Shown: piece after piece, positions 29,320 through 44,605 of the stretch
How the letters are laid out: each line of letters begins with the position of its first letter
Position numbering within the stretch: position 1 is the stretch's first letter
Source of the DNA: Escherichia coli
Lineage (GTDB): Bacteria; Pseudomonadota; Gammaproteobacteria; Enterobacterales; Enterobacteriaceae
Assembly (NCBI RefSeq): GCF_030013205.1
Contig: NZ_CP122648.1
Strand: one strand, 5' to 3'
Length of the DNA stretch: 64,000 nt
Position numbers and translations under genes: made by a program
The notes under the pieces: model-generated
Seen by the model: the letters and a program-made list of their open reading frames with translations, nothing else
Told to the model about the DNA's origin: nothing
Databases searched by the model: none

Positions 29320-30534
29320 ATGCTGCTTTCAGACCTTGCCATCAGGCGCGCGAAGCCGAAAGAAAAGGCTTATACACTCAATGACGGTAACGGGCTTTCG
29401 TTGCTCATTGAGCCGAACGGTTCGAAAGGGTGGCGACTGCGCTACAGGTTTGCAGGAAAGCCCAAAATGTTGTCGTTGGGTGTGTACCCTGATGTGTCTC
29501 TGTCTGATGCCAGGGCGGCAAGGGATGAGGCTAAAAGGCTTCTTGCTGGTGGTATAAATCCAAGTGAGGCCAGAAAAGCCCAAAAGCGAGAACAGGCGAG
29601 CAAATTTGGCAATACTTTTGAGGGTATTGCTCGCGAATGGTACGAAAAGCGGATCGACAGGTGGTCATCGTCATACGCCGAGGAAATGATCGAGACGTTT
29701 GAAAAAGATGTTTTTCCGTACATTGGCGGTAGGCCGATCGCAGAAATTAAGCCGATGGAATTGCTGGCGGTTCTTTCCCGTCTTAATGACCGTGGTGCGA
29801 CTGAAAAATTGCGTAAGGTTCGCCAGCGATGCGGCGAGGTGTTCCGGTACGCAATCATCACCGGACGCGCCGAATATAATCCAGCCCCTGACCTGGTGAG
29901 CGCATTTGCTCCACATAAAAAAGAGCATTACGCCTATTTGAAGGCCGACGAACTGCCGGAATTTTTCCGCGTTTTTAATACGTACACCGGAAGCCAGATC
30001 GTCAAACTGGCAATGCGGCTATTAATTCTGACAGGTGTCAGACCCGGGGAATTACGGCAGGCAGAATGGCAGGAGATCGATTTTGATAATCGTTTGTGGG
30101 AAGTGCCTAAAGAACGAATGAAGATGCGCCGTCCGCATTGTGTGCCATTACCAGAACAGGCGATAAAAATACTGGAGCAGTTAAAAAACATGACAGGCCA
30201 GTATCAGTTTATTTTCCCCGGTCGTATTCGCCACAGTAAGCCAATGAGTGAAATGGCGATGAATGTGCTCATTCGTCGTATCGGCTATGCCGGGCGCGTT
30301 ACTGGTCATGGATTCCGGCACACCATGAGCACCATTTTGCATGAGCAGGGCTATAACACTGCGTGGATAGAAACGCAGCTCGCGCACGTCGATAAAAACT
30401 CAATTCGTGGCACGTACAACCATGCGCAATATCTGGACGGGCGGCGGGAAATGCTTCAGTGGTACGCTGATTATATGGATTCGCTCGAGCATGGCGGAAA
30501 TGTGGTGCATGGTGAGTTCGGAAAATGCGGGTGA
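29320..30534 (+). CDS. int: tyrosine integrase, P4-like
   Basis: ORF 29281..30534. The ATG at 29320 follows a GGAG. The N-terminus MLLSDLAIRRAKPKEKAYTLNDGNGL is typical of P4-type integrases. The catalytic region contains GVRPGELRQ, HGFRHT and RGTYNH. Confidence 0.9.
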   Translation: MLLSDLAIRRAKPKEKAYTLNDGNGLSLLIEPNGSKGWRLRYRFAGKPKMLSLGVYPDVSLSDARAARDEAKRLLAGGINPSEARKAQKREQASKFGNTFEGIAREWYEKRIDRWSSSYAEEMIETFEKDVFPYIGGRPIAEIKPMELLAVLSRLNDRGATEKLRKVRQRCGEVFRYAIITGRAEYNPAPDLVSAFAPHKKEHYAYLKADELPEFFRVFNTYTGSQIVKLAMRLLILTGVRPGELRQAEWQEIDFDNRLWEVPKERMKMRRPHCVPLPEQAIKILEQLKNMTGQYQFIFPGRIRHSKPMSEMAMNVLIRRIGYAGRVTGHGFRHTMSTILHEQGYNTAWIETQLAHVDKNSIRGTYNHAQYLDGRREMLQWYADYMDSLEHGGNVVHGEFGKCG

Positions 30535-30662
30535 CTGGTTGAGTATACAGTAGTAGACTTTGAGCGACGAAAGAAAAGGCTGTGTCTAGGGTCGCTCCCG
30601 AAAATCCGTACACCTCGACGGACTGGTACAGCCACTACAGTAGAGGACGCTGAGGTGTGCGT

Positions 30663-31460
30663 ATGATTGATATTCATGCCGAATTAAACGAATACAAAAA
30701 AGATTTTATTTCTTTACGTGAATTTCTTGAGGTCGTGCTTAAGGTCGCTGGTGATGATTATGATGTTTCAGATGTCATAACTTGGATACTCAGGAGAATA
30801 AGCGGAGAACATATCCGCCTGTACACAGTAAATGAATTTAAGCTGTTGGAATCTTTTTGTAACCCGTATCGGGATGAATTTGATAATGATGTTCTTTATA
30901 GAAATCTGAATGCGGTTCGGAAACGTGGTTGTTTACCTGGTGAGAGGGATGAAAATGGTTTTCTGGTGTCCGGTTATTGGGAAGATCCCGAATTTGAGAA
31001 CATTGGATTTATAAGGGGTGAAATTTTCGCAATTTTTCCCGATGTCCTTGACGCGTTAACGAAGCTGGAAGGCGCTAACTCTTCTGAAAATGACGAGGCA
31101 CAAGGACGCGATATTGAAAAGAAAGAGTTGCGTACAGAGGATGATTTATTATCCCAAATCGCAATGCTGGAAAAAGAAAACGCAGAGTTAAGGGCAAGGA
31201 TAGAGCAGTTAGAGCAAGAGCGCCCGATACACTTATATAAATACTGGGATAAAGACCCATTAGCTAAGGCTATTGAGATTAGAAACAGAGAGTGGGCCAA
31301 TTACGATCCAGAAAATGATTTTGCCACCAGGGGAAATCAAGAAGCGATAACCAGGGAGCTTAAGCAGTGGGGGGCAAGTAATGCACTTGCAACGCTCATA
31401 GAGAGGACTGCCTGCCCTATTAACCGAGACAACAGCCAAAAGAACGCAAAGCCGGATTAA
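30663..31460 (+). CDS. hypothetical protein (265 aa) with C-terminal coiled coil; cargo position between int and alpA
   Basis: ORF 30657..31460. The ATG at 30663 lies 7 nt after GAGG. I recognise no domain. There is a heptad-like segment, LLSQIAMLEKENAELRARIEQLEQE. Confidence 0.6.
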   Translation: MIDIHAELNEYKKDFISLREFLEVVLKVAGDDYDVSDVITWILRRISGEHIRLYTVNEFKLLESFCNPYRDEFDNDVLYRNLNAVRKRGCLPGERDENGFLVSGYWEDPEFENIGFIRGEIFAIFPDVLDALTKLEGANSSENDEAQGRDIEKKELRTEDDLLSQIAMLEKENAELRARIEQLEQERPIHLYKYWDKDPLAKAIEIRNREWANYDPENDFATRGNQEAITRELKQWGASNALATLIERTACPINRDNSQKNAKPD

Positions 31461-31475
31461 CGCACCATACCGCAT

Positions 31476-31618
31476 ACCCTGAGGGTGATTTACTGTTACC
31501 CTGAGGGTATTTTTTTATCTTCCCCGTCAATTTTACCATCACCCTTAGGGTAGATTTCCTCCCGATTACCATCACCCTTAGGGTAGATTTCCTTCCGGTA
31601 ACCATTAGGCCTGAGGGT
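31476..31618. promoter_or_regulatory. five phased 11-bp palindromes ACCCT(G/T)AGGGT (operator array) upstream of alpA
   Basis: Boxes lie at 31476-86, 31498-508, 31541-51, 31574-84 and 31608-18 (the last reads GGCCTGAGGGT). Centre spacings are 22, 43, 33 and 34 bp. Boxes 3 and 4 sit inside a 33-bp tandem duplication (31535-31567 / 31568-31600). Confidence 0.7.
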
Positions 31619-31687
31619 ATGAAAATATTCGTTATTTCTGTGCCATGATTACCTCGTCAAATTGAGTAGACGTTATGAGGTAAATAT

Positions 31688-31885
31688 ATGTCAAATACGC
31701 TTATTCGTTTAACAGAAGTTCAGCGTAGAACTGGATATAGCAAGGCATGGATTTATCGCCTTATGGGGCAAGGTAAATTTCCTGCATCAGTTAAAATTGG
31801 CTCGCGAGCTATTGCTTTCGTTGAGAGTGAAATTGACGAGTGGATTAATCAGCGTATTGCGGAATCACGCGGAACAGCTACCTGA
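31688..31885 (+). CDS. alpA: AlpA-family transcriptional regulator/excisionase-like HTH protein
   Basis: 65 aa. The sequence LIRLTEVQRRTGYSKAWIYRLMGQGKFPASVKIGSRAIAFVESEIDEWI is a classic AlpA/Xis MerR-like HTH. Confidence 0.85.
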   Translation: MSNTLIRLTEVQRRTGYSKAWIYRLMGQGKFPASVKIGSRAIAFVESEIDEWINQRIAESRGTAT

Positions 31886-31962
31886 TTAAATGGCTACGGG
31901 GCTATTGCCCCCAGCTATCCACCAGCAAATAAAAGTAACTTAATTCGATAGCAGGAGTTTTT

Positions 31963-32763
31963 ATGAAATTTCCAAAAACGCCCGTACAGGGGCGGGGCTT
32001 CGTTCGGCCTGAAAACCAGAATCTGCAAAATTTCGGCGAAATTATCCCGATTATTTCCGGCGTTATTGGCGGGAGTGAAACCACTATTGTTAGCGCCAGA
32101 GCGTTACATAAGGCGTTAGGTGTAGGGCGCGTTTTCCGTTCGTGGATCAAGGGGCGCATTGAAGAATATGGGTTCACGGAAGGCGTGGATTATAAGGTTG
32201 TTGAATATTTGAGCCGACCCGATCCGGTGAGCGCAAAATCTCGCCAGCAAACCGCTCTTGAGTACATCATCACAGTGAACATGGCGAAAGAACTGGCGAT
32301 GGTCGAACGTACCGAACAGGGCCGCGCCGTTCGCCAGTACTTTATCAAATGCGAGGAGGAGCTACACAAGGTTGCGCCTGTTCGTTCCGCAGCGTTACGC
32401 CGGGAACTGAAAGCCCGTATCACAGTTGCCAGCTACTTTAAGCCAATGTGTGCCGCGCTGGAGGCGTACCGGGCTGAACTGGGTAAAAACACACTCCAGC
32501 ACCACTACACCACGGAAGCGAACATGCTGGCGCGTATCGTGCTGGGTGGCATGACTGCAAAACAGTGGGCACTGGCGAACGGCATTACAGGCGAACCACG
32601 CGACCACATGAGCACGTTGCAGCTTGAGCACCTTTCTTACCTTGAGCAGAGCAATATCACGCTGATTGAGTTAGGCCAGGACTACCACCAGCGGAAGGCT
32701 GAATTAATTCGTCTTTCGCAGCGTTGGTTAGCCCGTCGCATGGAGGAAAACAGCCATGTGTAA
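31963..32763 (+). CDS. phage antirepressor-like protein (AntA/Bro-N type N-terminus, KilAC-like C-terminus)
   Basis: 266 aa. The segment VSARALHKALGVGRVFRSWIKGRIEEYGFTEGVDYKV matches the antirepressor N-terminal domain pattern. Confidence 0.65.
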   Translation: MKFPKTPVQGRGFVRPENQNLQNFGEIIPIISGVIGGSETTIVSARALHKALGVGRVFRSWIKGRIEEYGFTEGVDYKVVEYLSRPDPVSAKSRQQTALEYIITVNMAKELAMVERTEQGRAVRQYFIKCEEELHKVAPVRSAALRRELKARITVASYFKPMCAALEAYRAELGKNTLQHHYTTEANMLARIVLGGMTAKQWALANGITGEPRDHMSTLQLEHLSYLEQSNITLIELGQDYHQRKAELIRLSQRWLARRMEENSHV

Positions 32764-32778
32764 CGCTCTGACCGTTAC

Positions 32779-32809
32779 AAAAAGAAAAAGCGCCCCGTTG
32801 CCGGAGCGC
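32779..32809 (-). terminator. intrinsic terminator for the leftward RHH operon (also abuts the stop of the antirepressor gene)
   Basis: Stem GCGCCCCG/CGGAGCGC (7 of 8 pairs) with loop TTGC. On the minus strand it is followed by TTTTTCTTTTT. Confidence 0.6.
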
Positions 32810-33069
32810 CTTTGTGAACGAATAGCCTACTGCGCCATATTGCTTACTGTCTACGAGGCAGATTATAGCGTTGTGGTCGCACAGAGTGAAGGCGCTGATC
32901 ACCGTTACTACAGCACACCAGAAATGCAGAATATTTTGCTGCAAAATGTCGTTGGCCACGCTGTCCGGAAAGCAAAAAATTTTGCTGGTGGCGTGACTGA
33001 TACGATTTTTTCTGGTTGCTCGGTGCTGATCAACTTAACCTGGACTTATGTACAACATTGCAACTATTC

Positions 33070-33216
33070 CTACTTTAAGCTGAATGTAACTTTACCTATA
33101 TCATTAGAGGTATGGTCGCGCTTGACCTCAATTTCACCATTTTGTAGCCCTGCTACAAAAAAATATAAAAGTGTCAATGTTGCTGCAATCAGTAACCATT
33201 TTCCAAAAATATACAT
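33070..33216 (-). CDS. possible 48-aa membrane peptide
   Basis: Unlisted small ORF MYIFGKWLLIAATLTLLYFFVAGLQNGEIEVKRDHTSNDIGKVTFSLK. It lies 21 nt downstream of the RHH gene. It has one predicted TM helix and a weak RBS. Confidence 0.3.
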   Translation of the reverse strand: MYIFGKWLLIAATLTLLYFFVAGLQNGEIEVKRDHTSNDIGKVTFSLK

Positions 33217-33237
33217 TCTTGATTTTACCCTTAATCG

Positions 33238-33411
33238 TCAACCTTTTGGCACGATGCCTCGCTGTTGTAATTCTTTGCGGAGCACTCGTTTAATCCAGGT
33301 AGCTAATGAGGTGTCGCCGTCTGCTTTGGCTGCCTCCTCAAGTTGTGCCCTAAATTCTTCTGGTAGCCGCATTTGGTATGGTGGCGATCGTTTTTCTAAT
33401 GGTGTTGACAT
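33238..33411 (-). CDS. ribbon-helix-helix (Arc/MetJ-like) DNA-binding protein, 57 aa
   Basis: Unlisted ORF MSTPLEKRSPPYQMRLPEEFRAQLEEAAKADGDTSLATWIKRVLRKELQQRGIVPKG. It shows a beta-strand then two-helix RHH pattern. GGTAATTACC palindromes overlap its start. Confidence 0.6.
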   Translation of the reverse strand: MSTPLEKRSPPYQMRLPEEFRAQLEEAAKADGDTSLATWIKRVLRKELQQRGIVPKG

Positions 33412-33451
33412 GGTAATTACCCATAATTACTATAGTTACACGGTAATTACC
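33412..33451. promoter_or_regulatory. operator-like palindromes GGTAATTACC x2
   Basis: GGTAATTACC occurs at 33412-33421 and 33442-33451, with a degenerate copy (CATAATTACT) between them. They lie immediately upstream of and overlapping the RHH start codon. Confidence 0.55.
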
Positions 33452-33547
33452 ATTGTACTTACCATTGCAAAAAAAACAACGCCCCGGACTGCGGGAACAG
33501 TACCAGGGCGTCTAACCACCAACGATAGCGAAAGTATCGAGGTAGCT

Positions 33548-33751
33548 ATGATAAATCATACCACACACCCGCAAGGGCGGGACTCGCACAACCTGAATAA
33601 ATACATCTGGCGTTTTATCGCCCTGAGCACGGCACAACCGCGCGTGATTCACATCGAGGCCACCAGCGAACAGGAAGCCCGCCAGCAATCTCCTGATGGC
33701 TGCGTGATGGTATTCGCTGCCCGTATTCGCCAGGAGGTACGCCATGATTAA
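33548..33751 (+). CDS. small protein, possibly Icd-like (P4-family cell-division-inhibitor-like)
   Basis: 67 aa (MINHTTHPQGRDSHNLNKYIWRFIALSTAQPRV..VFAARIRQEVRHD) with GAGG upstream. It is the only plausible part of the listed 331-aa ORF 32756..33751. The family call is from memory only. Confidence 0.4.
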   Translation: MINHTTHPQGRDSHNLNKYIWRFIALSTAQPRVIHIEATSEQEARQQSPDGCVMVFAARIRQEVRHD

Positions 33752-34109
33752 CCTGTCACTTACCGACCTTCACCGCATTCAGTTTGACGAGAAATTTACC
33801 GGGCAGCTACTGGTCCATGTGGAGAACGGGCGCATAGTGCGTAATTACCACCTGCCGGATGGTGCAATTGCCGGAAGCGTTGAAGCATTGCTGGAAATGG
33901 CAGAACGTGCGCGACTGATTAAGCCGTTAACGTGCCATCACGATGATGATCTGCATTTTACCGGACGCATGGTGAGCCATTATGAAAACGGCGTTGAGGT
34001 ATCCCGCGAACGTCTGCGTGATGATTGCTGTTTCGGCACATTGCCGGAATTTATCGAATTGCTGACCGATTGCGGTTATCAGGTAATTCAGAGCAAGACG
34101 CAGGAGTAA
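33744..34109 (+). CDS. hypothetical protein (121 aa)
   Basis: ATGA overlap with the preceding gene. No recognisable motif. Confidence 0.55.
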   Translation: MINLSLTDLHRIQFDEKFTGQLLVHVENGRIVRNYHLPDGAIAGSVEALLEMAERARLIKPLTCHHDDDLHFTGRMVSHYENGVEVSRERLRDDCCFGTLPEFIELLTDCGYQVIQSKTQE

Positions 34110-34115
34110 AAAACC

Positions 34116-34406
34116 ATGAAAAAGAAAAATTCTGGCTTTACTGCCAGCGGCCCCGCTCGGCCTGAAATCAAACACGGCGATATTTACCGCGACACCAGAC
34201 GTGGGGGACGAGTGGTTATTCGTCACGTTACGCCAGGCAATATCACCTACCGCCGTGAGGCTTACGAATATGACTGCGTAATGCCGCGCCGTCAGTTTGA
34301 GCGTGATTTTATTCTGGTGGAAAACAAACAACAGGCGGTGGCGAGACGTGCAGCCACGAATATTAAAAAAATCCGGGCAATGTTGGTTGCGGGAGGTAAG
34401 AAGTGA
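34116..34406 (+). CDS. hypothetical small basic protein (96 aa)
   Basis: Its stop overlaps the primase start. It occupies a position typical of small accessory genes upstream of P4-type primases. Confidence 0.55.
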   Translation: MKKKNSGFTASGPARPEIKHGDIYRDTRRGGRVVIRHVTPGNITYRREAYEYDCVMPRRQFERDFILVENKQQAVARRAATNIKKIRAMLVAGGKK

Positions 34407-36208
34407 AAAACGCCCCGAATTTAAAATATCAGCCGAAGGATAAATTCACTGAGGTAATCATTTTTGCCGGGACGGATGCTTACGCCCATGCTCAACACTG
34501 GATTGAAAGCGAAGGACGAAAACACGGCGATAACGTACCACCTGTTTACCTGGGGCCGAAGCAACTGGCAGACCTGGCGAACATCCGCATTATCGACGAA
34601 GGGCGCCGCTTTGCGCGTGTCTATATCGCAGGGGAGATCGAACCAATTCAGATCAACGCTATCGCCGAAAAGCTGGCACTGGCTGGCGTACAGGAGGCGA
34701 AATTATACAAAGGCATCACCGACCGGGAGCCGGAGAACTGGCGCGATTACCTGCAACGGATCCGCGAACAGGCAGAGCGCGGGGAAGTTTCAGCGATGAA
34801 ATTAGTCACAAAAAATAGTGACCTACCCAGGCCAGCACTAAATCAGATGGGAGCCAGCCAGAGAGGGGAAGTATTGCTTGAATATTATGGAAGGGCACTG
34901 GCTATAAATGACGATTCTGATGTAGTTCACCATTACAACGGAATTGTCTGGGAGCCTGTATCTGATAAGGAACTCCAGCGGTCTATGGCGAAGATTTTTA
35001 TTGATGCTGGAATCAGTTATTCGCAAAACGCCATTAAATTTGCCGTAGACACAATGAAATTGAGCCTGCCTGTTATGGGCGGGGCAGACAGGAATCTTAT
35101 TGGATTCAGTAACGGGGTATTTGATACCCGGACAGGAAATTTTCGGGAGCATAACAAAAATGACTGGTTGTTAAATGCCAGTGAATTACCGTTCAGCCCA
35201 CCAGCAGAGGGGGAAACGCTGGCAACACATGCGCCGAATTTCTGGAAGTGGCTGCGTCGTTCGGTGGCAAATAACGATCGTAAAGCGGATCGCGTACTGG
35301 CGGCATTATTCATGGTACTGGCGAACCGGTACGACTGGCAGTTATTCCTTGAGGTAACGGGGCCGGGCGGAAGCGGTAAAAGTGTGATGGCGGAGATTTG
35401 TACCATGCTGGCGGGTAAGGCCAATACAGTATCGGCGAGCATGAAGGCGCTGGAAGACGCGAGGGAACGAGCGTTAGTGGTGGGATATTCTCTGATTATC
35501 ATGCCTGACATGACCCGCTACGCAGGTGATGGTGCTGGGATTAAGGCCATTACAGGCGGTGACAAGGTGGCAATCGACCCGAAACATAAAGCCCCCTACT
35601 CCACACGTATTCCGGCGGTAGTGCTGGCAGTAAACAATAACGCCATGTCATTCAGTGATCGCAGTGGAGGGATCTCGCGTCGTAGGGTGATATTTAATTT
35701 CTCTGAGGTCGTACCGGAGAACGAACGCGATCCCATGCTGGTGGAAAAAATAGAAGGCGAACTGGCGGTAGTGATTCGCCATTTGCTTACACGATTTGCC
35801 GACCAGGACGAAGCGAAAAGACTACTTTATGAGCAGCAAAAATCAGAAGAAGCACTGTTAATAAAGCGTGAAGGTGATTCGCTGGTGGACTTCTGCGGTT
35901 ATCTGATGTCGTTGGTTAAATGTGAGGGGATGATAGTAGGTAATGCAGAAATAGTGCCATTTAGCCCGAGGCGATATCTGTATCATGCTTATTTGGCTTA
36001 TATGTCTGCGCATGGTCTGGGAAAACCGGTATCACTGACACGCTTTGGTACAGATATGCCAGGGGCAATGGCTGAGTACGGAAAGGAGTACAAGCGGGCT
36101 AAATGCACTAAAGGTCCAGATAAAGGGCGAACGATCACAAATGTTCTGTTAGATAAAGATGCTGATGGATGGTTACCAGCAGCGGCAGGCATTAACGACA
36201 GAACATGA
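34403..36208 (+). CDS. P4-alpha/D5-type primase-helicase (replication initiator)
   Basis: 601 aa. It has Walker A VTGPGGSGKS and Walker B-like LIIMPD. The overall layout matches the phage/plasmid primase P4-family C-terminal domain. Confidence 0.8.
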   Translation: MKNAPNLKYQPKDKFTEVIIFAGTDAYAHAQHWIESEGRKHGDNVPPVYLGPKQLADLANIRIIDEGRRFARVYIAGEIEPIQINAIAEKLALAGVQEAKLYKGITDREPENWRDYLQRIREQAERGEVSAMKLVTKNSDLPRPALNQMGASQRGEVLLEYYGRALAINDDSDVVHHYNGIVWEPVSDKELQRSMAKIFIDAGISYSQNAIKFAVDTMKLSLPVMGGADRNLIGFSNGVFDTRTGNFREHNKNDWLLNASELPFSPPAEGETLATHAPNFWKWLRRSVANNDRKADRVLAALFMVLANRYDWQLFLEVTGPGGSGKSVMAEICTMLAGKANTVSASMKALEDARERALVVGYSLIIMPDMTRYAGDGAGIKAITGGDKVAIDPKHKAPYSTRIPAVVLAVNNNAMSFSDRSGGISRRRVIFNFSEVVPENERDPMLVEKIEGELAVVIRHLLTRFADQDEAKRLLYEQQKSEEALLIKREGDSLVDFCGYLMSLVKCEGMIVGNAEIVPFSPRRYLYHAYLAYMSAHGLGKPVSLTRFGTDMPGAMAEYGKEYKRAKCTKGPDKGRTITNVLLDKDADGWLPAAAGINDRT

Positions 36209-36236
36209 TACGAAATTTATAAGTTGAAACTTAAAA

Positions 36237-36575
36237 GTAGACGGTTGGTAGACAGATACACTTAACCCTCTACCAACCATCTACTAATTAATGTTTTGAA
36301 TTATATAGGTATTTTTAATGTGGTAGAGAGGTGGGCAGTTATTTCTATATTCCTAAACCACGGGGGGTATATAAAAAAACAGATAGTTAAGGGTTCATTT
36401 TTTAAATTTCTCTTTTAACTGTCTACACTGTCTACCATTTAGTAAAAATCATTAATTATCAATGTATTAATGCGGTAGACAGTTAGTAGACAGTTTGCAG
36501 ATTGTTTTTTTGTTATGAGTTAATAACATTAAATAAATCAATCAATTATATCGGTAGACAGTTGGTAGACAGTTG
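36237..36575. repeat. iteron-type replication origin (GGTAGACAGTT repeats flanking an AT-rich core)
   Basis: Copies are GTAGACGGTTGGTAGACAGA (36237-56); inverted copies CTCTACCAACCATCTAC (36269-85) and CTGTCTACACTGTCTACC (36419-36); GCGGTAGACAGTTAGTAGACAGTT (36472-95); and TCGGTAGACAGTTGGTAGACAGTT (36552-75). The field lies directly downstream of the primase gene. Confidence 0.8.
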
Positions 36576-36580
36576 TAACG

Positions 36581-37123
36581 ATGGGGCAAAGCATGACTAA
36601 GCTGACCATTAACAGAAAACCGAAAGGCATTTATGGCACGCCGCAGAAAACGACGCAGGCGGCACAGGAGCAGGATAAAACCACGTCGGCGCATAAAGTG
36701 ATGCCCGGTAACCAGAAAGCGCAGCAGAAGCCCACAGGGGCGACACCGTGGCGGCATATGACCAAGCGCCAGCGCAAAAACCGCAGGCGCATTAACCGCC
36801 TCACTGAGTTGTGGCCTGAATTATTCAGCCGGGAAGCACCGAAGCCGCTTAAGGTGGGGATATTCGACGACCTGATGCAGGATCTCGCCGTCAGGGGGCT
36901 GGCATTCGGTCCAGGGGCATTGCGTGCGACGCTGGCATCTTATGCACAGTGTCCGCGCTATTACCGCGCCTTAATGGCTGGTGGGGTACGCTACGACCTG
37001 AAAGGCCAGCCGTGCGGCGAGGTGACACCACAGGAACAACAGGACGCAGAAACGCGGCTGGTGGCGCTGAATGAGAAGCGCAAACGTCAGCGCCGGGTAG
37101 CAAAGGAGAAAACAGGCGCATGA
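36581..37123 (+). CDS. ProQ/FinO-domain RNA-binding protein
   Basis: 180 aa. The segment LWPELFSREAPKPLKVGIFDDLMQD..LRATLASYAQCPRYYRALMAGGVRYDLKGQPCGEV parallels the ProQ/FinO fold consensus (PLKIGI..L..AL..Y......Y......G..R.DL.G...G.V). Confidence 0.8.
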   Translation: MGQSMTKLTINRKPKGIYGTPQKTTQAAQEQDKTTSAHKVMPGNQKAQQKPTGATPWRHMTKRQRKNRRRINRLTELWPELFSREAPKPLKVGIFDDLMQDLAVRGLAFGPGALRATLASYAQCPRYYRALMAGGVRYDLKGQPCGEVTPQEQQDAETRLVALNEKRKRQRRVAKEKTGA

Positions 37124-37407
37124 TTCACGACAGCAAAGCGGAAGCACTGGAAGCGCGTGGTCTGTACCGGAGAGCGGCGGCGCGGTGGGCTGAGGTCATC
37201 ATGCTGGCGAATGATGACAAGGCACGGGAACAGGCGGCAAAACGTCGCGCGGAATGTATCCGCAAGGCAGCACGCCCACCAGCACGGCAGGATAATTTCG
37301 GGGAGATGCGCGAAACCATCAGCCGGGCACATGCCGGGATGGGATTACATCAGCCCAATGGTAAGGCATTCAGGAAATACCCTGGATCGAAAAATTGCAG
37401 TCAGTGA
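37120..37407 (+). CDS. PerC-family transcriptional regulator
   Basis: 95 aa. AEALEARGLYRRAAARWAEVIM...RRAECIRKAARPP matches the PerC/Pch signature as I remember it. ATGA overlap with the previous gene. Confidence 0.65.
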   Translation: MIHDSKAEALEARGLYRRAAARWAEVIMLANDDKAREQAAKRRAECIRKAARPPARQDNFGEMRETISRAHAGMGLHQPNGKAFRKYPGSKNCSQ

Positions 37408-37602
37408 CGGAGGCCGGGATTTTTCCCGGCTTTTTTGTGCCAGTAAAAAGCCCGCAGCCAGAAGTGTTGCGGGCTTTGTTTTTCAGGTGATTGAAGTCAA
37501 TGGGAAGAACGCGATCATCATGCGTTATTGTTTCATAAATTGCAATGATGTAGATCGTCATTTCAGTTTGTGCAATCATAATCGTTGTTTTGTTCAGGAG
37601 AT

Positions 37603-37782
37603 ATGACTATGAGAAAAGCCAGCGTGAAACCTGTTTTACTCGCTCGTGATCAGATTGAAGCATTACAGCGCATCCAGGACGAGGAACGCCGCAATTCTCC
37701 GCTGGGGATTGCTCCGAGCATTCATGAGGTCGCCCGGCGTTTAATGCAGCGGGCGCTTTATCCCGTAGAACGTCCGGCCTGA
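37603..37782 (+). CDS. small hypothetical protein (about 57-59 aa; start 37603 or 37609)
   Basis: ORF 37585..37782. GGAG precedes the ATGs. The product MTMRKASVKPVLLARDQIEALQRIQDEERRN.. is possibly RHH-like. Confidence 0.45.
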   Translation: MTMRKASVKPVLLARDQIEALQRIQDEERRNSPLGIAPSIHEVARRLMQRALYPVERPA

Positions 37783-37821
37783 TGGTCGTGATTTTTTGGT
37801 GAAAAAAGAGAGGTGGTAAAA

Positions 37822-38400
37822 ATGCCAGCAAGCAAAGAAGATTTGCGATTAAAACTGATGGAGGTGGTTAACGCTCTGTCAGAGTCGCAGGGCAGCACTC
37901 CGCAGGAGATTATCGAAATTCTGAATGCGATCCCCGCACAGGATTTCATAAAAGAGGATAACGCTAATCAAAACATCGTCGCGTCAGTCGAAGATGAATC
38001 CTCACTGGCAGAAGCCCAGGCCAAAGCGGATTCCGCATACAGCAATATGGGCCGTCGAGCTCCGGCCCCGTTTGCTGGTGAAAAGTCGATGGATTACCGC
38101 AAGCGTGCATTAATTGGCGCACAGAAGCTGGCTAAAAAATTCAGTGATGTGGATATTCGTTCCGTTTCAGATTCTGCAACGCTGGCGGTGCTGGAAGATC
38201 AGATTTACAAGGCTGCTCAGGAAAGTGCTCAGTGGGCCGTGGAAAACACGCCGGGTTATTTGACTAAAAAAGTCAGGATGGATGAAGCCGGGCGCCGGAT
38301 TACTGAATATCAGGGGGATCCGAATAACTGGCTTAGTGCTTTCAAAATCCCTCCCCGTCGCCTGGTCAAAATTAACGTTGCAAGCCTCGCGGGGGCATGA
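37822..38400 (+). CDS. hypothetical protein (192 aa), first gene of the morphogenesis-like block
   Basis: ORF 37813..38400. The ATG at 37822 follows GAGGTGG. The protein is helical and acidic, with no motif recognised. Confidence 0.55.
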   Translation: MPASKEDLRLKLMEVVNALSESQGSTPQEIIEILNAIPAQDFIKEDNANQNIVASVEDESSLAEAQAKADSAYSNMGRRAPAPFAGEKSMDYRKRALIGAQKLAKKFSDVDIRSVSDSATLAVLEDQIYKAAQESAQWAVENTPGYLTKKVRMDEAGRRITEYQGDPNNWLSAFKIPPRRLVKINVASLAGA

Positions 38401-38464
38401 AAAACGTGCTGATTTCAGCCCTGCCGGATTTGGCGGGGCTTATTGATTATAACCGGGTGACATT

Positions 38465-39148
38465 ATGCTTTTAACAGAAATTGAGGCGGCAAAGCAGATT
38501 CGGGACGGTCAGCTACCGTCGCCTTATCAGTTCTCCAACATGTGGCTGGTTAACCTGCGTATTACAGGGACTGGCATGGCCTACCGCGCCGAAGAAAAAG
38601 AATTTGTCTGGCGTTCACCGCAAACTTATCTCAATCCGCAGTTCCTGGAACGTTGCGCCGGAGTACCCGTCATTATCGACCATCCCGAAGGCAAAACCAT
38701 TGAAGACGTTGGCGAACGGTCGCGCATTATTGGCACCGTCATGTTGCCGTATATTCGCGGTGACGAGGTGTGGGGTGTATGCCGGATTTACGGGCAGGAA
38801 ATCATCGATTACATCCAGAAAGCACGGGGGGAGGTATCCACCAGCCCGTCGGTTGTGTTTTGTGGTGCGTCCGGTGGGGCAGAAGTTCCTGATGTAATGG
38901 GCGAGGACAATTTTTTCATTGAGGGTACGCCATTTCTTATCGATCACGTTGCGCTCGTACCGTTGGGCGTATGGGATAAGGGCGGGAAACCATCAGGTGT
39001 GGAAGTAACAACGCCGACAGAAGAAGAACAGCTCGCCGGAATGGTCCGTGAAGTTATTGATGCGGCCTGCAAGCCAGCTCTGGAAAAACTGGAAGAAATA
39101 TCCGGGCGGCTGGATCAACTGGAAAAAAACAGAGTGAGTGAATCATGA
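38465..39148 (+). CDS. hypothetical phage-structural-module protein (227 aa), in the slot usually held by a major tail protein
   Basis: It lies directly upstream of the chaperone-like and tape-measure-like genes, and its stop overlaps the next start. The function is inferred from position only. Confidence 0.4.
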   Translation: MLLTEIEAAKQIRDGQLPSPYQFSNMWLVNLRITGTGMAYRAEEKEFVWRSPQTYLNPQFLERCAGVPVIIDHPEGKTIEDVGERSRIIGTVMLPYIRGDEVWGVCRIYGQEIIDYIQKARGEVSTSPSVVFCGASGGAEVPDVMGEDNFFIEGTPFLIDHVALVPLGVWDKGGKPSGVEVTTPTEEEQLAGMVREVIDAACKPALEKLEEISGRLDQLEKNRVSES

Positions 39149-39762
39149 AAATTGCTAAAAACTTAAATCTGATTATCCCTGTGCGCACTGAAAAGGGTAA
39201 TGGCTGGCTCCATGCCACGCCGATCAGCAAAGAGGTGTTTAAAGAGCATTTCTTCATCCTGAGTAAAACCTTTTCTGCCATTTTTTCTGAAGGTCTTGGT
39301 GTTGTTGCGGGTCCGCGCGTTGCCTGCCTTATGCTGGAGAAAATCTCCCGTGACTCCGGTTTATGGGATGGGGAGAAAGGCATACGTAATACGCTCATAA
39401 ACGAAATTATTCGCCTGGCAAACCTTGTTTATCCAGTGGAGGGCAAAGGCTACGACACAATCCCTCTCGATATGGCGCTGGAGCGTGAAATCGTTGATTT
39501 GGACGAAGTGGCGGGTGAACTTGTTTTTTTTACATGCGTCTCGTCGATAAATTCCCCGGAGCAGACGAAGGGGACTATGGATGCGGTGAATGGAATATGG
39601 AGCACTCAATGCTCGTCCTTGAGTCTTACGGAATGGATCGATTCATTGCCGACATTGAAGCCTGCCGTCAGTTCTGGCGCGACGGCGAACACGTCATCAG
39701 CGACATCCTCGACTACTCAGCCGGAGCCGGATTCAGAGACATCTGTGCAGATTCCGGTCTGA
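39145..39762 (+). CDS. tail-assembly-chaperone-like protein (G-like, 0 frame)
   Basis: 205-aa ORF immediately upstream of the tape-measure-like gene. It contains the slip site T TTT TTT at codons 127-129. The 0-frame tail after the slip site is S/T-rich and low-complexity. Confidence 0.5.
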   Translation: MKIAKNLNLIIPVRTEKGNGWLHATPISKEVFKEHFFILSKTFSAIFSEGLGVVAGPRVACLMLEKISRDSGLWDGEKGIRNTLINEIIRLANLVYPVEGKGYDTIPLDMALEREIVDLDEVAGELVFFTCVSSINSPEQTKGTMDAVNGIWSTQCSSLSLTEWIDSLPTLKPAVSSGATANTSSATSSTTQPEPDSETSVQIPV

Positions 39763-39827
39763 ATGTAAAAACAGCAGCTCAGTTTCGTGAGCTGCTCAAA
39801 TTCAAAAATCCCGCAGGAGTATTGTAA
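39525..39827 (+). other. putative -1 programmed frameshift site (39525-39531) plus T-like extension frame
   Basis: The T8 run at 39524-39531 gives the heptamer T TTT TTT in the 0 frame. The -1 frame is open from there to 39827 (..YMRLVDKFPGADEGDYGCGEW..FKNPAGVL). It ends in TAATG, overlapping the ATG of the tape-measure-like gene. Confidence 0.55.
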
Positions 39828-41866
39828 TGTCAGGTAATCAGATGCCAGTTCTGACGCTGGACGTTAATGAAGAACACCTCAAACGGCTTGAGGCAATTTT
39901 TGAAAAGTATCGCAACGGGCTGATGATCGGCCCTGCCGGAACGCCGATGAAAATACCGGGGCAAAGTGGGCGCAGCGTGGGGGCAGGCTTACCCGTGGCG
40001 GCAAAATCTGGTCGGACAGGACCGGATGTATCCGGGAGAGTGAGGGACGAAAAAGGGCGCTTTGTCGGCAGCGGAAAAACAGCAGATTCGTTCGTAAGCA
40101 ACTATAAAGGTCGCGGCGAAACGATGTTTGATAAGTATCTCAGCGGGCTGGGGAAAAATGCCCAACAGACGCTGAAAACTTACAAGCAGATCAATTCTAC
40201 ACTACAGACGACCACTTCAAGATTAAACAACCTGTTTAAAACAACCGTATCGTGGGGAACAAAACTCTCGGTTATGGGCGTTGCCGGACCGTTTGGCTTT
40301 GGCATGATGTCCCGTAGTGTTGTAGAGAAACAGAAAAATGCAGATGAGCTGGTGGCAACGCCAGGAGAGTTAAAGGCGGCAGAAAGCACTTATTCGCCTT
40401 ATTTTTCCGGTGTTGGCAATGTGCTCAATACACTGGCAGCAGCACAAAATGATATATCGCATCCTGCCCGCGTCGGCCTGCTTAATCTGGGGCTAAATCC
40501 TGATAAAAACGCGACTGAAAACCTGCCTGTATTCCTGAAAAAGGTTGCAGAGCTGGCAAAGGAATATCAGGGAAGTGGTCTTACCCAGAGCATGCTCAGG
40601 GGAAGAGGGCTTGGATGGGTAAATTTTGGTCTTACTAACCAGTTAGTCAAATATCAGGACAAAATACCTGAACTCAACAAAGAGTTTTCGTTACGTGCAG
40701 CGCAGAATGATTCGTTACTGACCTCTGCACATACAAGTAAATATCAGAATATTACCAGTAACCTGGAAAAAAACTGGGATCGGCTTACCAGCGGATTTCA
40801 GGGAGCAATGGCGGGGAATGAAGACGCTTTAATCAGAATGTCTGATGGTGCCACGAATGCTGCCCTGAATTTCATGAATGGTGAGAACTTTAAAAGGATT
40901 CTGACGGATGTAGAAACGGGGCTGGATAAACTTGGTAAGTACGTAAATGGCCCGGATTTTAATAACGACCTGAACAATTTTGCCGAAAACGTTGCAAAGG
41001 TTGTTAAGGCACTTAGCGGGTTTGTTGGTTTTGCGGTTGAACATCCCTGGCTTTTTGGGGCCGCAGTACTTGCTGGACCATCGAGAGTTGGTGCTGTGGC
41101 AGCCACAACGACCGGAGTTGCCGCCCGTGTTGTTGGTGGAAGTCTTCTTGGGGCTACAGCCGGAACAGTAGCTGGATTGGCTATTCCTACAAATGACACA
41201 CCTACCACCAGTGAGGAAATGAAAGGGCTGGAGGGGCGTTTCAACTTTGATTATTTTAACGAAGTGCAGGAGTGGCAAAAAAACAATCCGGGTAAGGTCT
41301 GGCCTGGAGGATTGCAGGGATTTTCAAATCAAGTAAACAGATCTGCATATTTATCCAGAGGGATCAGGAATAACAATCCCGGAAATCTTAATTTCGCAGG
41401 ACAAAAAGGGGCTACCCTGGAATCGGGGCCAAATGCCCGTTTTGCCAGCTTCCCGACGATGCTGGAAGGCATTGCCGCCTTAGATCGGCAGGTAATGCTA
41501 TACCTGAAACGCGGCAAAAATACGATTGATCAGATTATTGATATTTATGCCCCTTCATCTGATGGAAATAACACATCGTCCTATAAAAGCTATCTCTCTC
41601 AGTACACCGGATTAGGTGTTAAGGAGAAAATCGATGGTTCTAATTTTGAGGTCATGAAAAAGCTAATTCAGGGCATTATTAACCATGAAAATGGTGCTGC
41701 CGCTAAAGCTGTAAGTGTTGAAGATGTGATCCGGGCGCTGGCTATGAATCGTGGGATTGTCCCTGCAGCAGGAAACAATGATCAGAACGTTAAGTTGGAA
41801 ATTGTTCGGAACGCTGGTGCCGATTACTTCGCGCAACTAATTGGTGCTCAACGGTTCCTGGGATGA
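39827..41866 (+). CDS. tape-measure-like protein (679 aa)
   Basis: It has a long helical N-terminal part, then a Gly/Ala-rich hydrophobic segment (FGAAVLAGPSRVGAVAATTTGVAARVVGGSLLGATAGTVAGLAIP). The C-terminal globular domain carries RNNNPGNLNF. The gene follows the chaperone-like gene. Confidence 0.55.
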   Translation: MSGNQMPVLTLDVNEEHLKRLEAIFEKYRNGLMIGPAGTPMKIPGQSGRSVGAGLPVAAKSGRTGPDVSGRVRDEKGRFVGSGKTADSFVSNYKGRGETMFDKYLSGLGKNAQQTLKTYKQINSTLQTTTSRLNNLFKTTVSWGTKLSVMGVAGPFGFGMMSRSVVEKQKNADELVATPGELKAAESTYSPYFSGVGNVLNTLAAAQNDISHPARVGLLNLGLNPDKNATENLPVFLKKVAELAKEYQGSGLTQSMLRGRGLGWVNFGLTNQLVKYQDKIPELNKEFSLRAAQNDSLLTSAHTSKYQNITSNLEKNWDRLTSGFQGAMAGNEDALIRMSDGATNAALNFMNGENFKRILTDVETGLDKLGKYVNGPDFNNDLNNFAENVAKVVKALSGFVGFAVEHPWLFGAAVLAGPSRVGAVAATTTGVAARVVGGSLLGATAGTVAGLAIPTNDTPTTSEEMKGLEGRFNFDYFNEVQEWQKNNPGKVWPGGLQGFSNQVNRSAYLSRGIRNNNPGNLNFAGQKGATLESGPNARFASFPTMLEGIAALDRQVMLYLKRGKNTIDQIIDIYAPSSDGNNTSSYKSYLSQYTGLGVKEKIDGSNFEVMKKLIQGIINHENGAAAKAVSVEDVIRALAMNRGIVPAAGNNDQNVKLEIVRNAGADYFAQLIGAQRFLG

Positions 41867-41917
41867 TTTAAATACACGCGCTTTCCGGCGCATTAATACA
41901 GTCTGAGGGGAAGTGTC

Positions 41918-42445
41918 ATGTTTATGAGCAAGGCAGAATATGCCAAACACAAAGGCGTAAGCCGCCAGACAGTTTACGACTGGATCGAGAAAGGCGAAGT
42001 GATCATGTCTGGCAAAAAAATTGATGTGGAAGCGACAGAGCAGCGGAACAGCCCACCAGCACAGGGAAAAGATACCGTTTCTGAAATGTGGCCAGAGAGA
42101 ACGCTGGAAATGACGTGGGGCGAGTTCTGGAAAGCAGTTAAGGCCAGAGACGGTAAAATCCCTGCACCAGTAACGGACAATGACATACAGCAGCGTGTAC
42201 AGGATGCAGCCGGGGAACTATGCTGTGAAGTGCAATTTCTTGATGATGGTGCTATCTGCCTTGAGGATTATGCTGGGCAATATTACTTTGAGCAGTATGA
42301 TTTTCGGGAAAATGCCAGGCTGGCAATTCGTATGCTGCGTTGTGAGCTCTGCTATGTTGCAGGTGATTGTCCCGATGAGCTGGATAACTGGAGTGAAGCC
42401 GGACTAAACGCCCTGGCTGAGTGGGAAAAATCAGGCCATCAATGA
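41918..42445 (+). CDS. Nu1/TerS-like winged-HTH protein (175 aa)
   Basis: The N-terminus MSKAEYAKHKGVSRQTVYDWIEKGEV resembles lambda Nu1-type small terminase HTH domains. A repeat field lies immediately downstream. Confidence 0.5.
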   Translation: MFMSKAEYAKHKGVSRQTVYDWIEKGEVIMSGKKIDVEATEQRNSPPAQGKDTVSEMWPERTLEMTWGEFWKAVKARDGKIPAPVTDNDIQQRVQDAAGELCCEVQFLDDGAICLEDYAGQYYFEQYDFRENARLAIRMLRCELCYVAGDCPDELDNWSEAGLNALAEWEKSGHQ

Positions 42446-42450
42446 CCTCA

Positions 42451-42732
42451 AAAAGTGTCAAGTTGAGCAGCTTGCCAGGTTGACACTTTACACTCTGAAC
42501 GCGAAAAAGTGTCAACCTCGCTGTAAGCCCCGCCATTACTGGCCTTTCGCCAGATTTACCACGTCAAAAAGCCGAAAAAATCGCGAAAAGTGTCAAGTTG
42601 CCATGCTTAGAAATGCTAAGGTTTGATAAGGTTTTTCGCGAAAAAGTGTCAAGTGTGTCAACCTGCGATGTTAAGATTTGTTAAGGTCTTAAGCCGGAAA
42701 GTGTCAACCAGCCCCCTAAGATTTCCTAAGGT
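42451..42732. repeat. repeat field: at least 6 copies of AAAGTGTCAA(C/G) interleaved with TAAG..TAAGGT repeats (candidate cosB/pac-like or second origin)
   Basis: AAAGTGTCAA copies lie at 42451-62, 42479-91 (inverted), 42503-17, 42585-600, 42641-62 (double) and 42686-700. Three carry the extended form CGCGAAAAAGTGTCAA. The second family reads CTTAGAAATGCTAAGGTTTGATAAGGT, GTTAAGATTTGTTAAGGT and CCTAAGATTTCCTAAGGT. Confidence 0.75.
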
Positions 42733-42739
42733 GTAAACC

Positions 42740-42919
42740 ATGACCATCACCGAAGCCGATTTGCTGGAGATGATCCGCAGCATTGCCGGAATCAAACAAC
42801 CAGCAAGCAAAATTAACAGGTGTTCAGCGCCTGTTTCCGTTGTGCTGCAGCAGGAACGCCACCAGCATGATGATGTGAGGCCGTATCAGTGGCGGAAACC
42901 GGACAGGCCGCGACGGTGA
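42740..42919 (+). CDS. possible small ORF (59 aa)
   Basis: Unlisted ORF MTITEADLLEMIRSIAGIKQPASKINRC.. It starts just after the repeat field. No motif and only a weak RBS, so it may be a gene remnant. Confidence 0.25.
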   Translation: MTITEADLLEMIRSIAGIKQPASKINRCSAPVSVVLQQERHQHDDVRPYQWRKPDRPRR

Positions 42920-43211
42920 GCGGAACGTTCGGTAAGGCTACAGCCAAGCCAAACATTAAGCCTACGGGTAACCCTTCGAAGGGGCTTTAAAGGGGAGATG
43001 ATTATCCTTACCAGTTGATAAACAAGCAAACCTCAAATTTGAGGTTTGTATCTGCCTGACTTATTTTTGTGCTAAGTTGTTGATATATCCGACGACACAA
43101 ATTTGCGTTCTGTGGCTGGTGGTGGCGAGTTACGACCGATCATTTCCTTCCTGGCAGGTTACATCCTGCTGCTCAACTACTACGGTAGCCACTACGATTA
43201 ACTACGCGATG

Positions 43212-43240
43212 CCGATATGGGGATTCCCATATCGGTTTAT
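43212..43240 (+). terminator. intrinsic terminator
   Basis: Perfect 10-bp stem CCGATATGGG/CCCATATCGG with loop GATT, followed by TTTAT. Confidence 0.6.
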
Positions 43241-43306
43241 CCGTGATCATCCACCAGCTTGATCACGGTTAACAGGGGATGTGTAATCCCCAAGCGAGTG
43301 ATAAAT

Positions 43307-43336
43307 GTGTATAGAAATGTGTATAGAATTTATTTT
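43307..43336 (+). repeat. arm-type repeat GTGTATAGAAATGTGTATAGAATTTATTTT (partner of 29271-29307)
   Basis: See the partner feature. It lies 50 bp left of the second att core. Confidence 0.6.
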
Positions 43337-43385
43337 AGAACTCGCGAATGCGCCTTTATTACTGGCCTTGTGGCTTGTTGTATTG

Positions 43386-43403
43386 TTCCCTTCGCCCGCT
43401 CCA
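43386..43403 (+). repeat. att core copy 2: TTCCCTTCGCCCGCTCCA (18-bp direct repeat of the glyU 3' end)
   Basis: Exact match to 29138-29155. Confidence 0.9.
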
Positions 43404-43900
43404 GAATCTCCCCAGGTGGAGAAGACTAAAAAAGTCTTCTCTGTCAGCAACTTAAACAGTTACCTATTTAATTTGCTTAGGAGTTCTACCATTGTGATCC
43501 GCCCTTAGTAACTGTCACGTTAAGTTACTCGGTGAGATGACAGTATAACCTAACGTTGGCGGCAGTTGCACCTCTCACACCGCGATAGCACAACGTGAAG
43601 ATAAAGCCCATCCTGGCATTGTAATGTCATCGACAGACTGAACACACGCATTTAAGCCCGATGTGCGGCCTTGTGGCTGCGTAAACAGGTTTATGGTGAT
43701 ATTGGTCCTTGCAAACCATATGCAAGCTCTATCAGCGTTTCAGCCACGCTCCCAACGGGTACACGGTTATCCTGATAAGGTGTGATCTTTCTGACAATCT
43801 GATGAAGTCGCTACGCTCCCGCTTGTTGCTGTATCACCAACGGGGCTTTATGGTTTCTATTGTCTATAATAATCTCACAATTCCCCTGCATGAGGTTGAT

Positions 43901-44107
43901 ATGACTGTTAGCTACAAGATTACTTATGAGCATAGAGACGGTGATCAAATTAGAATGGAAGAGGTTTTATTCCATTCAGAGCATGAACCAACAAAAGATG
44001 AAATTCATGATGCAGTAAGAAAAGATACTGTGAGATTTAATTCTCCATCTAATGGAGTAACGGCTGTTTCAGGGTTTAAAGTGATTTCGGTTGTCCCTGT
44101 TCCATGA
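43901..44107 (+). CDS. hypothetical protein (68 aa)
   Basis: The internal ATG of ORF 43709..44107 is preceded by GAGG (tgaggttgatATG). Product begins MTVSYKITYEHRDGDQIRMEE... Confidence 0.45.
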   Translation: MTVSYKITYEHRDGDQIRMEEVLFHSEHEPTKDEIHDAVRKDTVRFNSPSNGVTAVSGFKVISVVPVP

Positions 44108-44140
44108 ATGGTTATAGAAGGGGCTGGAAGCCCCTAATTA

Positions 44141-44461: not shown

Positions 44462-44605
44462 GTAAATAATCCCAAGAGATAATGGTTATGTATTGATTTA
44501 AAGCGTTTTTAGATTAATGCATTAACTTAGCAAAATTAAGTCTTTTCTGATTGTTTGCAGAGTAAAAATGAGTTGCTTTCGAAATTATTTCGGATGTTTA
44601 TTGTA

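Follow-up and report, generated by a model that had tools for sequence, protein, structure and literature searches.

The DNA analysed here (the window) is a 64,000-nucleotide (nt) stretch of the Escherichia coli contig NZ_CP122648.1. It contains a phage-inducible chromosomal island (PICI) of ~14.25 kb, extending from 29134 to 43404 between att copies at tRNA-Gly(CCC). Directly after the replication origin of this island lie two adjacent genes that encode a FinO/ProQ-domain protein and a PerC-family protein (ProQ and PerC where gene order is described), and these form the subject of this work. The pair and its flanking elements are as follows.

36209–36580, no strand: replication origin, an AT-rich core surrounded by GGTAGACAG(T) iterons of either orientation (repeat families D1, D2 and D5; inverted pairs I6–I17)
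36593–37123, + strand: FinO/ProQ-domain protein of 176 amino acids (aa), reading frame open from 36581 (Pfam, sequence matches in the Protein Data Bank (PDB), AlphaFold, Foldseek, ratio of non-synonymous to synonymous substitution (dN/dS))
37120–37407, + strand: PerC-family protein, 95 aa (Pfam, PHROG 994, 51% identity to PchE, model, dN/dS)
37409–37483, + strand: two tandem hairpins of intrinsic-terminator type (RNA fold, terminator scan)

In the list of open reading frames (ORFs) of the window both genes are on the + strand, running from 36581 to 37123 (180 aa) and from 37120 to 37407 (95 aa). They share a stop/start overlap ATGA at 37120–37123, within the sequence GGCGCATGATTCAC. An earlier note on this DNA had placed the two genes back-to-back with this overlap, behind the origin of a mobile island. 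Both ORFs and the overlap are present, the iteron-rich, AT-rich gap 36209–36580 precedes the ProQ gene, and the satellite nature of the island is borne out by its PICI gene order, att repeats and origin.

The FinO/ProQ gene probably starts at the second methionine codon, ATG 36593 (giving 176 aa), and not at 36581. This codon is used by 17 of 18 aligned homologues and is also where the RefSeq annotation of an identical gene begins; GGGG lies 8 nt to its 5′ side. The RefSeq locus used for comparison is from the chromosome of the pig enterotoxigenic E. coli (ETEC) strain ETEC4079, with 100% identity across the 1401-bp query (36200–37600). The PerC ATG has AAGGAG 11 nt to its 5′ side. The junction from ProQ to PerC is tight in every locus with that order, taking the form ATGA, TGAgtATG or TAAATG, and is compatible with coupled translation. 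The transcription unit probably ends at the two hairpins 3′ of PerC, the first (37409–37434) followed by a U-run and the second (37447–37477) by GUUUUU.

The 372-nt gap between the primase stop codon and the ProQ gene contains 7 of the 11 matches to the iteron motif GGTAGACAGT in the window. These were counted at up to one mismatch, for which 1.8 matches are expected in the whole 64 kb. The bin 36200–36499 has a GC content of 31%.

The FinO-domain and PerC proteins

Both family assignments of the earlier note agree with the Pfam profiles. Residues 67–172 of the first protein match positions 4–108 (of 109) of the ProQ/FinO profile PF04352 with 84.5 bits, above the cut-off of 27 (E = 6.2e-24). 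A search of PDB sequences finds the N-terminal domain of ProQ (E = 6e-12), FinO (E = 2e-10), NMB1681 and RocC. The scores against the more specific NCBIfam profiles are 64 bits for FinO (NF010317, cut-off 136) and 58.1 bits for ProQ (NF003434, cut-off 127). Because both fall under their cut-offs, the satellite protein is taken to be an orthologue of neither FinO nor ProQ, and to belong to a separate clade.

The AlphaFold model, calculated from an alignment of 19 clade members, predicts a FinO-domain fold. Residues 1–55 (ORF numbering) form a basic, disordered N-terminus, with a predicted local distance difference test (pLDDT) score below 50 across most of it; this is followed by the FinO domain (~60–150) and a long C-terminal helix, and residues 60–180 are modelled confidently (pLDDT ~90). 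The best Foldseek matches (1DVO (FinO), 3MW6, 7RGT, 7RGU and 6S10) all have a probability of 1.0, with target-normalised template modelling scores of up to 0.84, and include NMB1681 and the terminator-bound RocC (7RGU) as well as FinO. When the protein is aligned with E. coli ProQ, its residues R115, Y127 and R137 fall at the positions of ProQ R58, Y70 and R80, which are reportedly the key RNA-binding residues of ProQ. R137 is invariant among the 19 clade members, and R115 and Y127 are nearly so. The satellite protein thereby appears to retain the residues by which other FinO-family proteins grip the 3′ end of a terminator hairpin.

Compared with five homologues the gene has a dN/dS of 0.22–0.32, pointing to purifying selection. 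The protein is ~30% identical to plasmid FinO-type proteins. A tblastn search of phages with the clade gave seven weak matches of ≤39% identity, and the clade is essentially absent from sequenced phages. In the literature the satellite gene was found only in annotation-level mentions, for an Enterobacter PICI (PMC13612085) and for Vibrio episomal satellites (PMC13230959), and no functional study was found.

The second protein matches the PerC profile PF06069 across its full length (residues 1–89 on positions 1–89 of 90) with 111.6 bits, against a cut-off of 22.6 (E = 2.2e-32), and it also matches PHROG 994. It carries the invariant N-terminal motif of the PerC family, D-x2-AE-x2-E-x2-G-x-YRRAA-x-RW. 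The dN/dS of the gene is 0.14–0.53, which again indicates purifying selection, and tblastn against phages gave two weak matches. The model is all-helical, without a recognisable DNA-binding fold. Its N-terminal half has three helices resembling tetratricopeptide repeats (TPR), and the predicted template modelling score is only 0.47.

Identity is 53% to the PerC of EcCICFT073, 51% to PchE of Sakai Sp7 and 46% to EcCIMP1_025; to plasmid-borne members it is ~45–48% for most, and 58% at most. A protein with this 58% identity is encoded on a 12,152-bp ‘plasmid’ from chicken E. coli (NZ_CP148430.1), the accession of which is near that of the chromosome NZ_CP148427.1, which bears the ProQ-PerC module. 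It may be an excised circular PICI that was assembled as a plasmid.

The earlier note had linked PerC to LEE (locus of enterocyte effacement) activation. By sequence the window protein is closest to the PchE/PICI branch, and that branch is reported to be inactive on LEE1: Porter 2005 (cited in PMC11773190) reportedly saw no change in LEE1 fusions with the PerC-like genes from EcCIEDL933 (PchE) and EcCICFT073. These are the nearest characterised relatives. The more distant EcCIMP1_025 represses LEE1-lux in Citrobacter rodentium (PMC11773190). The connection of the window PerC with the LEE thus appears weak.

The same findings bear on whether the two genes are host-directed cargo (‘morons’), by which PerC and the FinO-domain protein would reprogramme host genes (the LEE, the E. 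coli type III secretion system 2 (ETT2), flagella, or the network of host ProQ and small RNAs (sRNAs)) to the benefit of the lysogen; this is in essence the view of the earlier note. The repression exerted by EcCIMP1_025 fits such a role, as does RgdR, the DUF4222 protein of the related island OI-51, an activator of LEE1 and repressor of motility (PMC3378721). PICI reviews count the PerC variants of E. coli PICIs among the accessory or virulence genes (PMC6092414), and ETT2 is present in the source strain. However, the published LEE effects stem from over-expression, and the relatives at 51–53% identity are those reported without effect. Moreover, PICIs of LEE-negative strains such as CFT073 carry the module in one constant location, between origin and packaging genes, and it occupies the same place in Serratia and Erwinia PICIs and at other att sites. 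We regard host-directed cargo as rather unlikely.

Cassettes behind the origin

Of 5426 complete E. coli genomes, 1174 contain the FinO-domain DNA segment, and its 1654 places are all chromosomal. A single genome has up to nine of them, the source strain three. The ProQ-PerC arrangement, with at least 80% of the query covered, occurs in 238 of the 5426. The pair is therefore no chance rarity; E. coli satellites commonly carry the module, and annotations of it exist already. A scan of genome contigs returned mostly distant chromosomal ProQ-like genes, with only the loci L003–L006 being informative. The order of genes after the origin in these and other comparison loci is listed here, with hyp denoting a hypothetical gene and SSB the gene for single-stranded DNA-binding protein.

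ProQ-PerC: this window, L003
SSB-ProQ-PerC: L004, L048–L051 (SSB shortened in L048–L051)
hyp-SSB-PerC: CFT073, Sakai Sp7
hyp-SSB-PerC-ProQ: L046
SSB-ProQ: L006 (Erwinia)
ProQ alone: L005 (Serratia)
SSB-ProQ-hyp138, then a frameshifted PerC remnant: L041–L045, the most widespread ProQ-carrying variant

PerC thus follows the origin in CFT073, Sakai Sp7, L003, L004, L046 and L048, and ProQ occupies the same slot in L003–L006, L041–L046 and L048–L051. The module is found behind two replicases (D5_N/DUF5906 or DUF927), and at both tRNA-Gly and tRNA-Pro sites. ProQ and PerC are not an obligate pair, given the several combinations, the existence of both orders and the frameshifts that disrupt PerC in the commonest variant with ProQ. 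From these arrangements SSB, ProQ and PerC are read as independently assorting cassettes of a replication-proximal module, and not as a dedicated two-part system.

In L041–L045 frameshifts and stops disrupt the PerC remnant (~6800–7130, locus coordinates), with ProQ and SSB intact. The 138-aa ORF that follows ProQ in this variant was considered as a divergent PerC and rejected, as it has no Pfam match and the frameshifted remnant lies downstream of it. Likewise, the Sakai gene upstream of pchE was considered as a concealed FinO-domain gene and proved to encode a genuine SSB (PF00436) that does not resemble ProQ.

The remnant in the commonest variant raises the question of whether one or both genes are decaying passengers without current function in the window, and many truncated family members were indeed seen in the protein searches. 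Against this, both window ORFs are intact and full-length relative to the Pfam profiles, dN/dS is well below 1 across a large divergence, and the tight ProQ-PerC junction is kept in its three forms. Decay is considered very improbable.

The place of the FinO-domain gene could alternatively reflect a part in replication. The protein would act at the origin with or instead of SSB, binding a primer or origin transcript or single-stranded nucleic acid and setting timing or copy number, in the manner of FopA/Inc RNA in the IncI replicon. The gene is never more than a few hundred bases away from the iteron origin and frequently adjoins SSB directly (L004, L006, L041–L046), and in the window and L003 it fills the slot that is taken by hyp-SSB in CFT073 and Sakai. 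A review of the FinO/ProQ family, which describes many phage- and plasmid-derived members and does not treat satellites, offers precedents in FopA and FinO, where a FinO-domain protein controls replication and transfer (PMC9977716). Vibrio episomal satellites have a ProQ/FinO-like gene, listed under plasmid-maintenance functions alongside parA and repA (PMC13230959). However, SSB and ProQ co-occur in many PICIs, so that they do not substitute for one another, and the PICIs of CFT073 and EDL933 replicate without a FinO-domain gene. Nor was a candidate antisense or primer RNA with promoter and terminator found in or beside the origin. A replication accessory is judged improbable, less so than decay.

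The island and its neighbours

The remaining features of the island are listed in order.

29082–29156, + strand: tRNA-Gly(CCC), with its 3′ end 29134–29156 forming the left att repeat (ARAGORN, Rfam tRNA, 23-nt direct-repeat family D1)
29281–30534, + strand: tyrosine integrase of the PICI, RefSeq start 29320 (ORF list, RefSeq annotation of the identical locus)
30579–30646, + strand: int-alpA RNA motif RF02996 (Rfam 45.5 bits, gathering threshold 35.8, E = 1.9e-6)
31688–31885, + strand: alpA, of the PICI master regulator family (Pfam Phage_AlpA PF05930, E = 2.4e-19)
34116–34406, + strand: DUF4222 protein, of the Pfam family of RgdR (ECs1581), overlapping the primase start (PF13973, E = 1.3e-19)
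34403–36208, + strand: P4/D5-type primase-helicase, pri-rep (Pfam D5_N, DUF5906, Pox_D5)
37609–37782, + strand: 57-aa conserved PICI gene heading the downstream block (homologues in L003 and L005)
37813–41866, + strand: variable accessory block encoding a 195-aa protein, a DUF2213 protein, a 205-aa protein and a 679-aa protein (Pfam, PHROG)
41918–42445, + strand: 175-aa protein with an N-terminal helix-turn-helix (HTH) motif (Pfam HTH_17; PHROG 57 small terminase across the N-terminus only)
43382–43404, + strand: degenerate right att copy, 18 of 23 positions matching, the right end of the PICI (repeat family D1)

The gene order is integrase, int-alpA motif, alpA, AntA-type gene, Icd-like gene, DUF4222 gene, primase, origin, ProQ, PerC, terminators, 57-aa gene, four-gene block and 175-aa HTH gene. 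On this gene content the island appears to be a typical Gram-negative PICI, with the organisation described for that class (PMC6092414): int, alpA and pri-rep are co-oriented and precede an origin in which two sets of iterons surround an AT-rich core, the size is within ~10–20 kb, att repeats bound it at a specific site, and there are no lysis or tail genes. Among nine island proteins scanned against Pfam or PHROGs, none matched a family of capsid, portal, large terminase or tail-fibre proteins. Virion-type matches of the nine were limited to weak protease-like and transglycosylase-like ones, the DUF2213 protein giving a weak match to a head-protease PHROG (E = 1e-5). A P4-like satellite was rejected, there being no psu, delta or sid families among the island proteins (Pfam/PHROG); the primase domains and the Icd-like gene are the only features common to P4 and the island. 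A capsid-forming PICI (cf-PICI) was rejected as well, since a capsid, portal, protease, adaptors and terminase of its own are absent from 29134–43404.

Near-identical integrases occur in L003 and in L005, the latter beside tRNA-Gly(CCC). The int-alpA motif is located directly 3′ of the integrase stop codon and 5′ of a 267-aa ORF without family match. Upstream of alpA are a 33-nt tandem repeat (31533–31598) and several CCCTGAGGGT / CCCTTAGGGT palindromes within 31470–31630; these look like operator sites. The primase scores 95.8 bits against TIGR01613, under the cut-off of 108.7.

ECs1581/RgdR of Sakai matches PF13973 with E = 2.1e-23 and is in the same place, upstream of its own primase. RgdR is therefore the DUF4222 gene, and was rejected as a FinO-domain gene. 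According to the 2011 paper on RgdR, it resembled no protein then known, yet ECs1581 does match this family. In an unaligned comparison, the window copy reads RRGG in the region of the RGD motif of RgdR.

Downstream of the terminators there is a promoter-like site at 37555–37582. The 57-aa protein has no match in Pfam or PHROG, and a ribbon-helix-helix fold is a guess from its sequence. The accessory block is absent from L003, which is otherwise similar. Its 195-aa and DUF2213 proteins match different parts of a single 545-aa PHROG (6216), and the C-terminus of the 679-aa protein is transglycosylase-, tape-measure- or endolysin-like. EcCIMP1 and the L041–L045 islands have large genes of ejection-protein type, or resembling soluble lytic transglycosylases (SLT), in the same place. 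This is a hint that internal or ejection proteins are, in some PICIs, encoded by the satellite itself. No defence system was found when the unknown island proteins were scanned with PADLOC. The 175-aa HTH protein is conserved in L003, L005 and L006 and is possibly a packaging-redirection (Rpp-like) factor. Directly after its gene there are at least six copies of AAAAGTGTCAA(G/C) (GTGTCAA motifs), some inverted, within 42450–42710 (repeats D2 and D5); this stretch may be the packaging-recognition region of the satellite.

Beyond the right att copy lie a second element and the start of ETT2.

43405–58150, no strand: second, tandemly integrated element of ~14.7 kb (resolvase, capsid-E-like, Dit-like, IS3, integrase; exact att copy 58128–58150)
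60583–63032, + strand: start of ETT2, with AraC-type eivF (60583–61332) and secretin eivG/sctC (61329–63032) (Pfam HTH_18, T3S_SPI-1_N0, Secretin)

The two elements are integrated in tandem, as the tRNA 3′ end recurs at 43382–43404 and again at 58128–58150. The second contains a resolvase (45114–45665, − strand), a capsid-E-like gene (51408–52436), a gene for a 607-aa unknown protein, IS3, a Dit-like baseplate gene (56051–56728) and, on the minus strand beside the exact att copy, an integrase (56822–58042). This element could represent a further satellite or what is left of a prophage. Between it and eivF lie a GH15 gene and a GhoT-like gene. In RefSeq, SctC is followed by an InvE-like gatekeeper and SctV. 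On the other side of the island, the window has a single 763-aa ORF for xdhA (25544–27835), which is a RefSeq pseudogene with an internal stop in the matching strain (L001 9345–11636).

The earlier note had described the gene pair as adjacent to ETT2. The eivF, eivG and eivE genes do lie downstream, but the gap from PerC to eivF is ~23 kb, and the 14.7-kb element and two genes intervene. The accompanying suggestion, that insertion at this place could rewire virulence, was drawn from position and is weakened by the published findings on the nearest homologues. The tRNA-Gly(CCC) site is shared, another element lies between, and the same module is found at tRNA-Pro(GGG) in other PICIs (L004, L050), so that adjacency to ETT2 is uninformative on function. 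The closeness follows incidentally from a tRNA insertion site that both have in common. The 23 kb and the intervening element count in the same way against the genes being host-directed cargo.

Proposed function and comparison with known systems

We consider it slightly better than an even chance that the module provides a satellite FinO-domain RNA-binding protein acting on one or a few terminator-type transcripts, together with PerC as a co-regulator at promoters, both made with the replication genes. In this scheme AlpA would switch the island on, and ProQ and PerC would be made together with the replication genes, probably by co-transcription with the alpA-to-primase genes across the origin as far as the two terminators. 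When the satellite is active, the FinO-domain protein would bind and stabilise, or help to anneal, one or a few structured transcripts, which could be those of the satellite, the helper phage or the host. PerC would work through protein contacts at satellite or host promoters, as Pch proteins reportedly do. That the FinO-domain protein serves RNA control by the satellite is plausible. A protein of the FinO family usually has a dedicated RNA partner, or a few of them; we know of no cognate antisense RNA for the satellite protein.

A partner RNA was sought in several ways. Rfam searches of the island and of 36150–37850, at both gathering and lenient thresholds, found tRNA-Gly and the int-alpA motif only; other matches were far under gathering (ncr1175, 32 against 60; isrK, 17.6 against 50; sar, 18 against 43). 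The double hairpin 3′ of PerC has a strong fold (−44.6 kcal/mol, z = −4.6) and was considered as a conserved sRNA, but its sequence is not kept in L003, L004 or L048 and it is read as an ordinary terminator. Two terminator-like sites on the minus strand in the 5′ region of ProQ (36801–36785 and 36642–36626) have no partner promoter and are taken as by-products of coding; the first falls on the conserved RKNRRR codons. A terminator and promoter scan found no convincing promoter for an antisense RNA.

The Rfam result, the variable hairpins and the missing antisense promoter all weigh against the proposed role in RNA control, and several further points do so too. Co-transcription through the origin is assumed, and there is a weak promoter-like site within the origin itself. 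The placement beside, or in the slot of, SSB could point to a role in DNA replication. For PerC, the TPR-like match is of a kind generic for short helical hairpins, and the mechanism is borrowed by analogy from the Pch proteins. Moreover, the post-ori genes of EcCICFT073, cloned singly, did not block lambda apart from c1503, giving no hint of a role for PerC (PMC6739421).

A wider proposal is possible, though we lean against it: that the satellite proteins form a distinct third clade of FinO-family RNA chaperones in E. coli, present in about one fifth of complete genomes and confined to chromosomal PICI-type islands, which act on specific transcripts during helper-phage infection. An example would be stabilisation of an antisense RNA by which the helper is pushed toward lytic growth, or satellite replication is timed. 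If so, phage satellites would bring their own RNA chaperone to the conflict between phage and satellite. The RNA partner would show whether satellites use RNA-level control against helper phages, and whether extra chaperones disturb the host ProQ network. The relevance to virulence is small, as satellite PerC genes are already known and partly tested, and the window PerC is in a branch not known to activate the LEE. The genes are ordinary for the PICI class and already annotated, and the residual interest lies in the common satellite FinO-domain clade.

Among known islands, EcCICFT073 and EcCIEDL933 (OI-51 / Sakai Sp7), the prototypes of the E. coli PICI and cf-PICI, share a backbone with the window island in the same order and gene by gene, comprising int, alpA, small genes, DUF4222, primase, iteron origin, one or more small nucleic-acid-binding genes, PerC, and packaging or interference genes. 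They differ in having hyp-SSB ahead of PerC and no FinO-domain gene, and in their att site, which is roxA-phoQ rather than tRNA-Gly(CCC). In addition, the replicase of Sakai Sp7 is DUF927 in place of D5_N/DUF5906/Pox_D5, and EcCIEDL933 bears a full capsid and terminase module that the window island lacks. EcCIMP1 of E. coli MP1 (PMC11773190) has AlpA, AntA, Icd-like, DUF4222, primase and PerC-family (46%) genes in common with the window island, and likewise has virion- or ejection-protein-like genes 3′ of the primase; it is a 20-kb island inserted at tRNA-Thr, with PerC at its far end and no FinO-domain gene.

The window PerC shares the full-length PF06069 match and the N-terminal motif with PerC of enteropathogenic E. 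coli (EPEC) and PchA–E of enterohaemorrhagic E. coli (EHEC), and is nearest to the PchE/PICI branch. The FinO-domain fold and the conserved Arg/Tyr/Arg residues are common to the satellite protein, FinO of F-like plasmids, FopA of IncI plasmids, ProQ, RocC and NMB1681. ProQ has a C-terminal domain that is absent from the satellite protein. FinO is closer in layout, with a disordered basic extension at the N-terminus, a long helix at the C-terminus and a comparable length (176–180 aa in the satellite protein, against 186 positions in the NCBIfam profile). Unlike the FinO family of plasmids, the satellite clade is encoded on chromosomal PICI-type islands only, at all 1654 places and none of them on plasmids.

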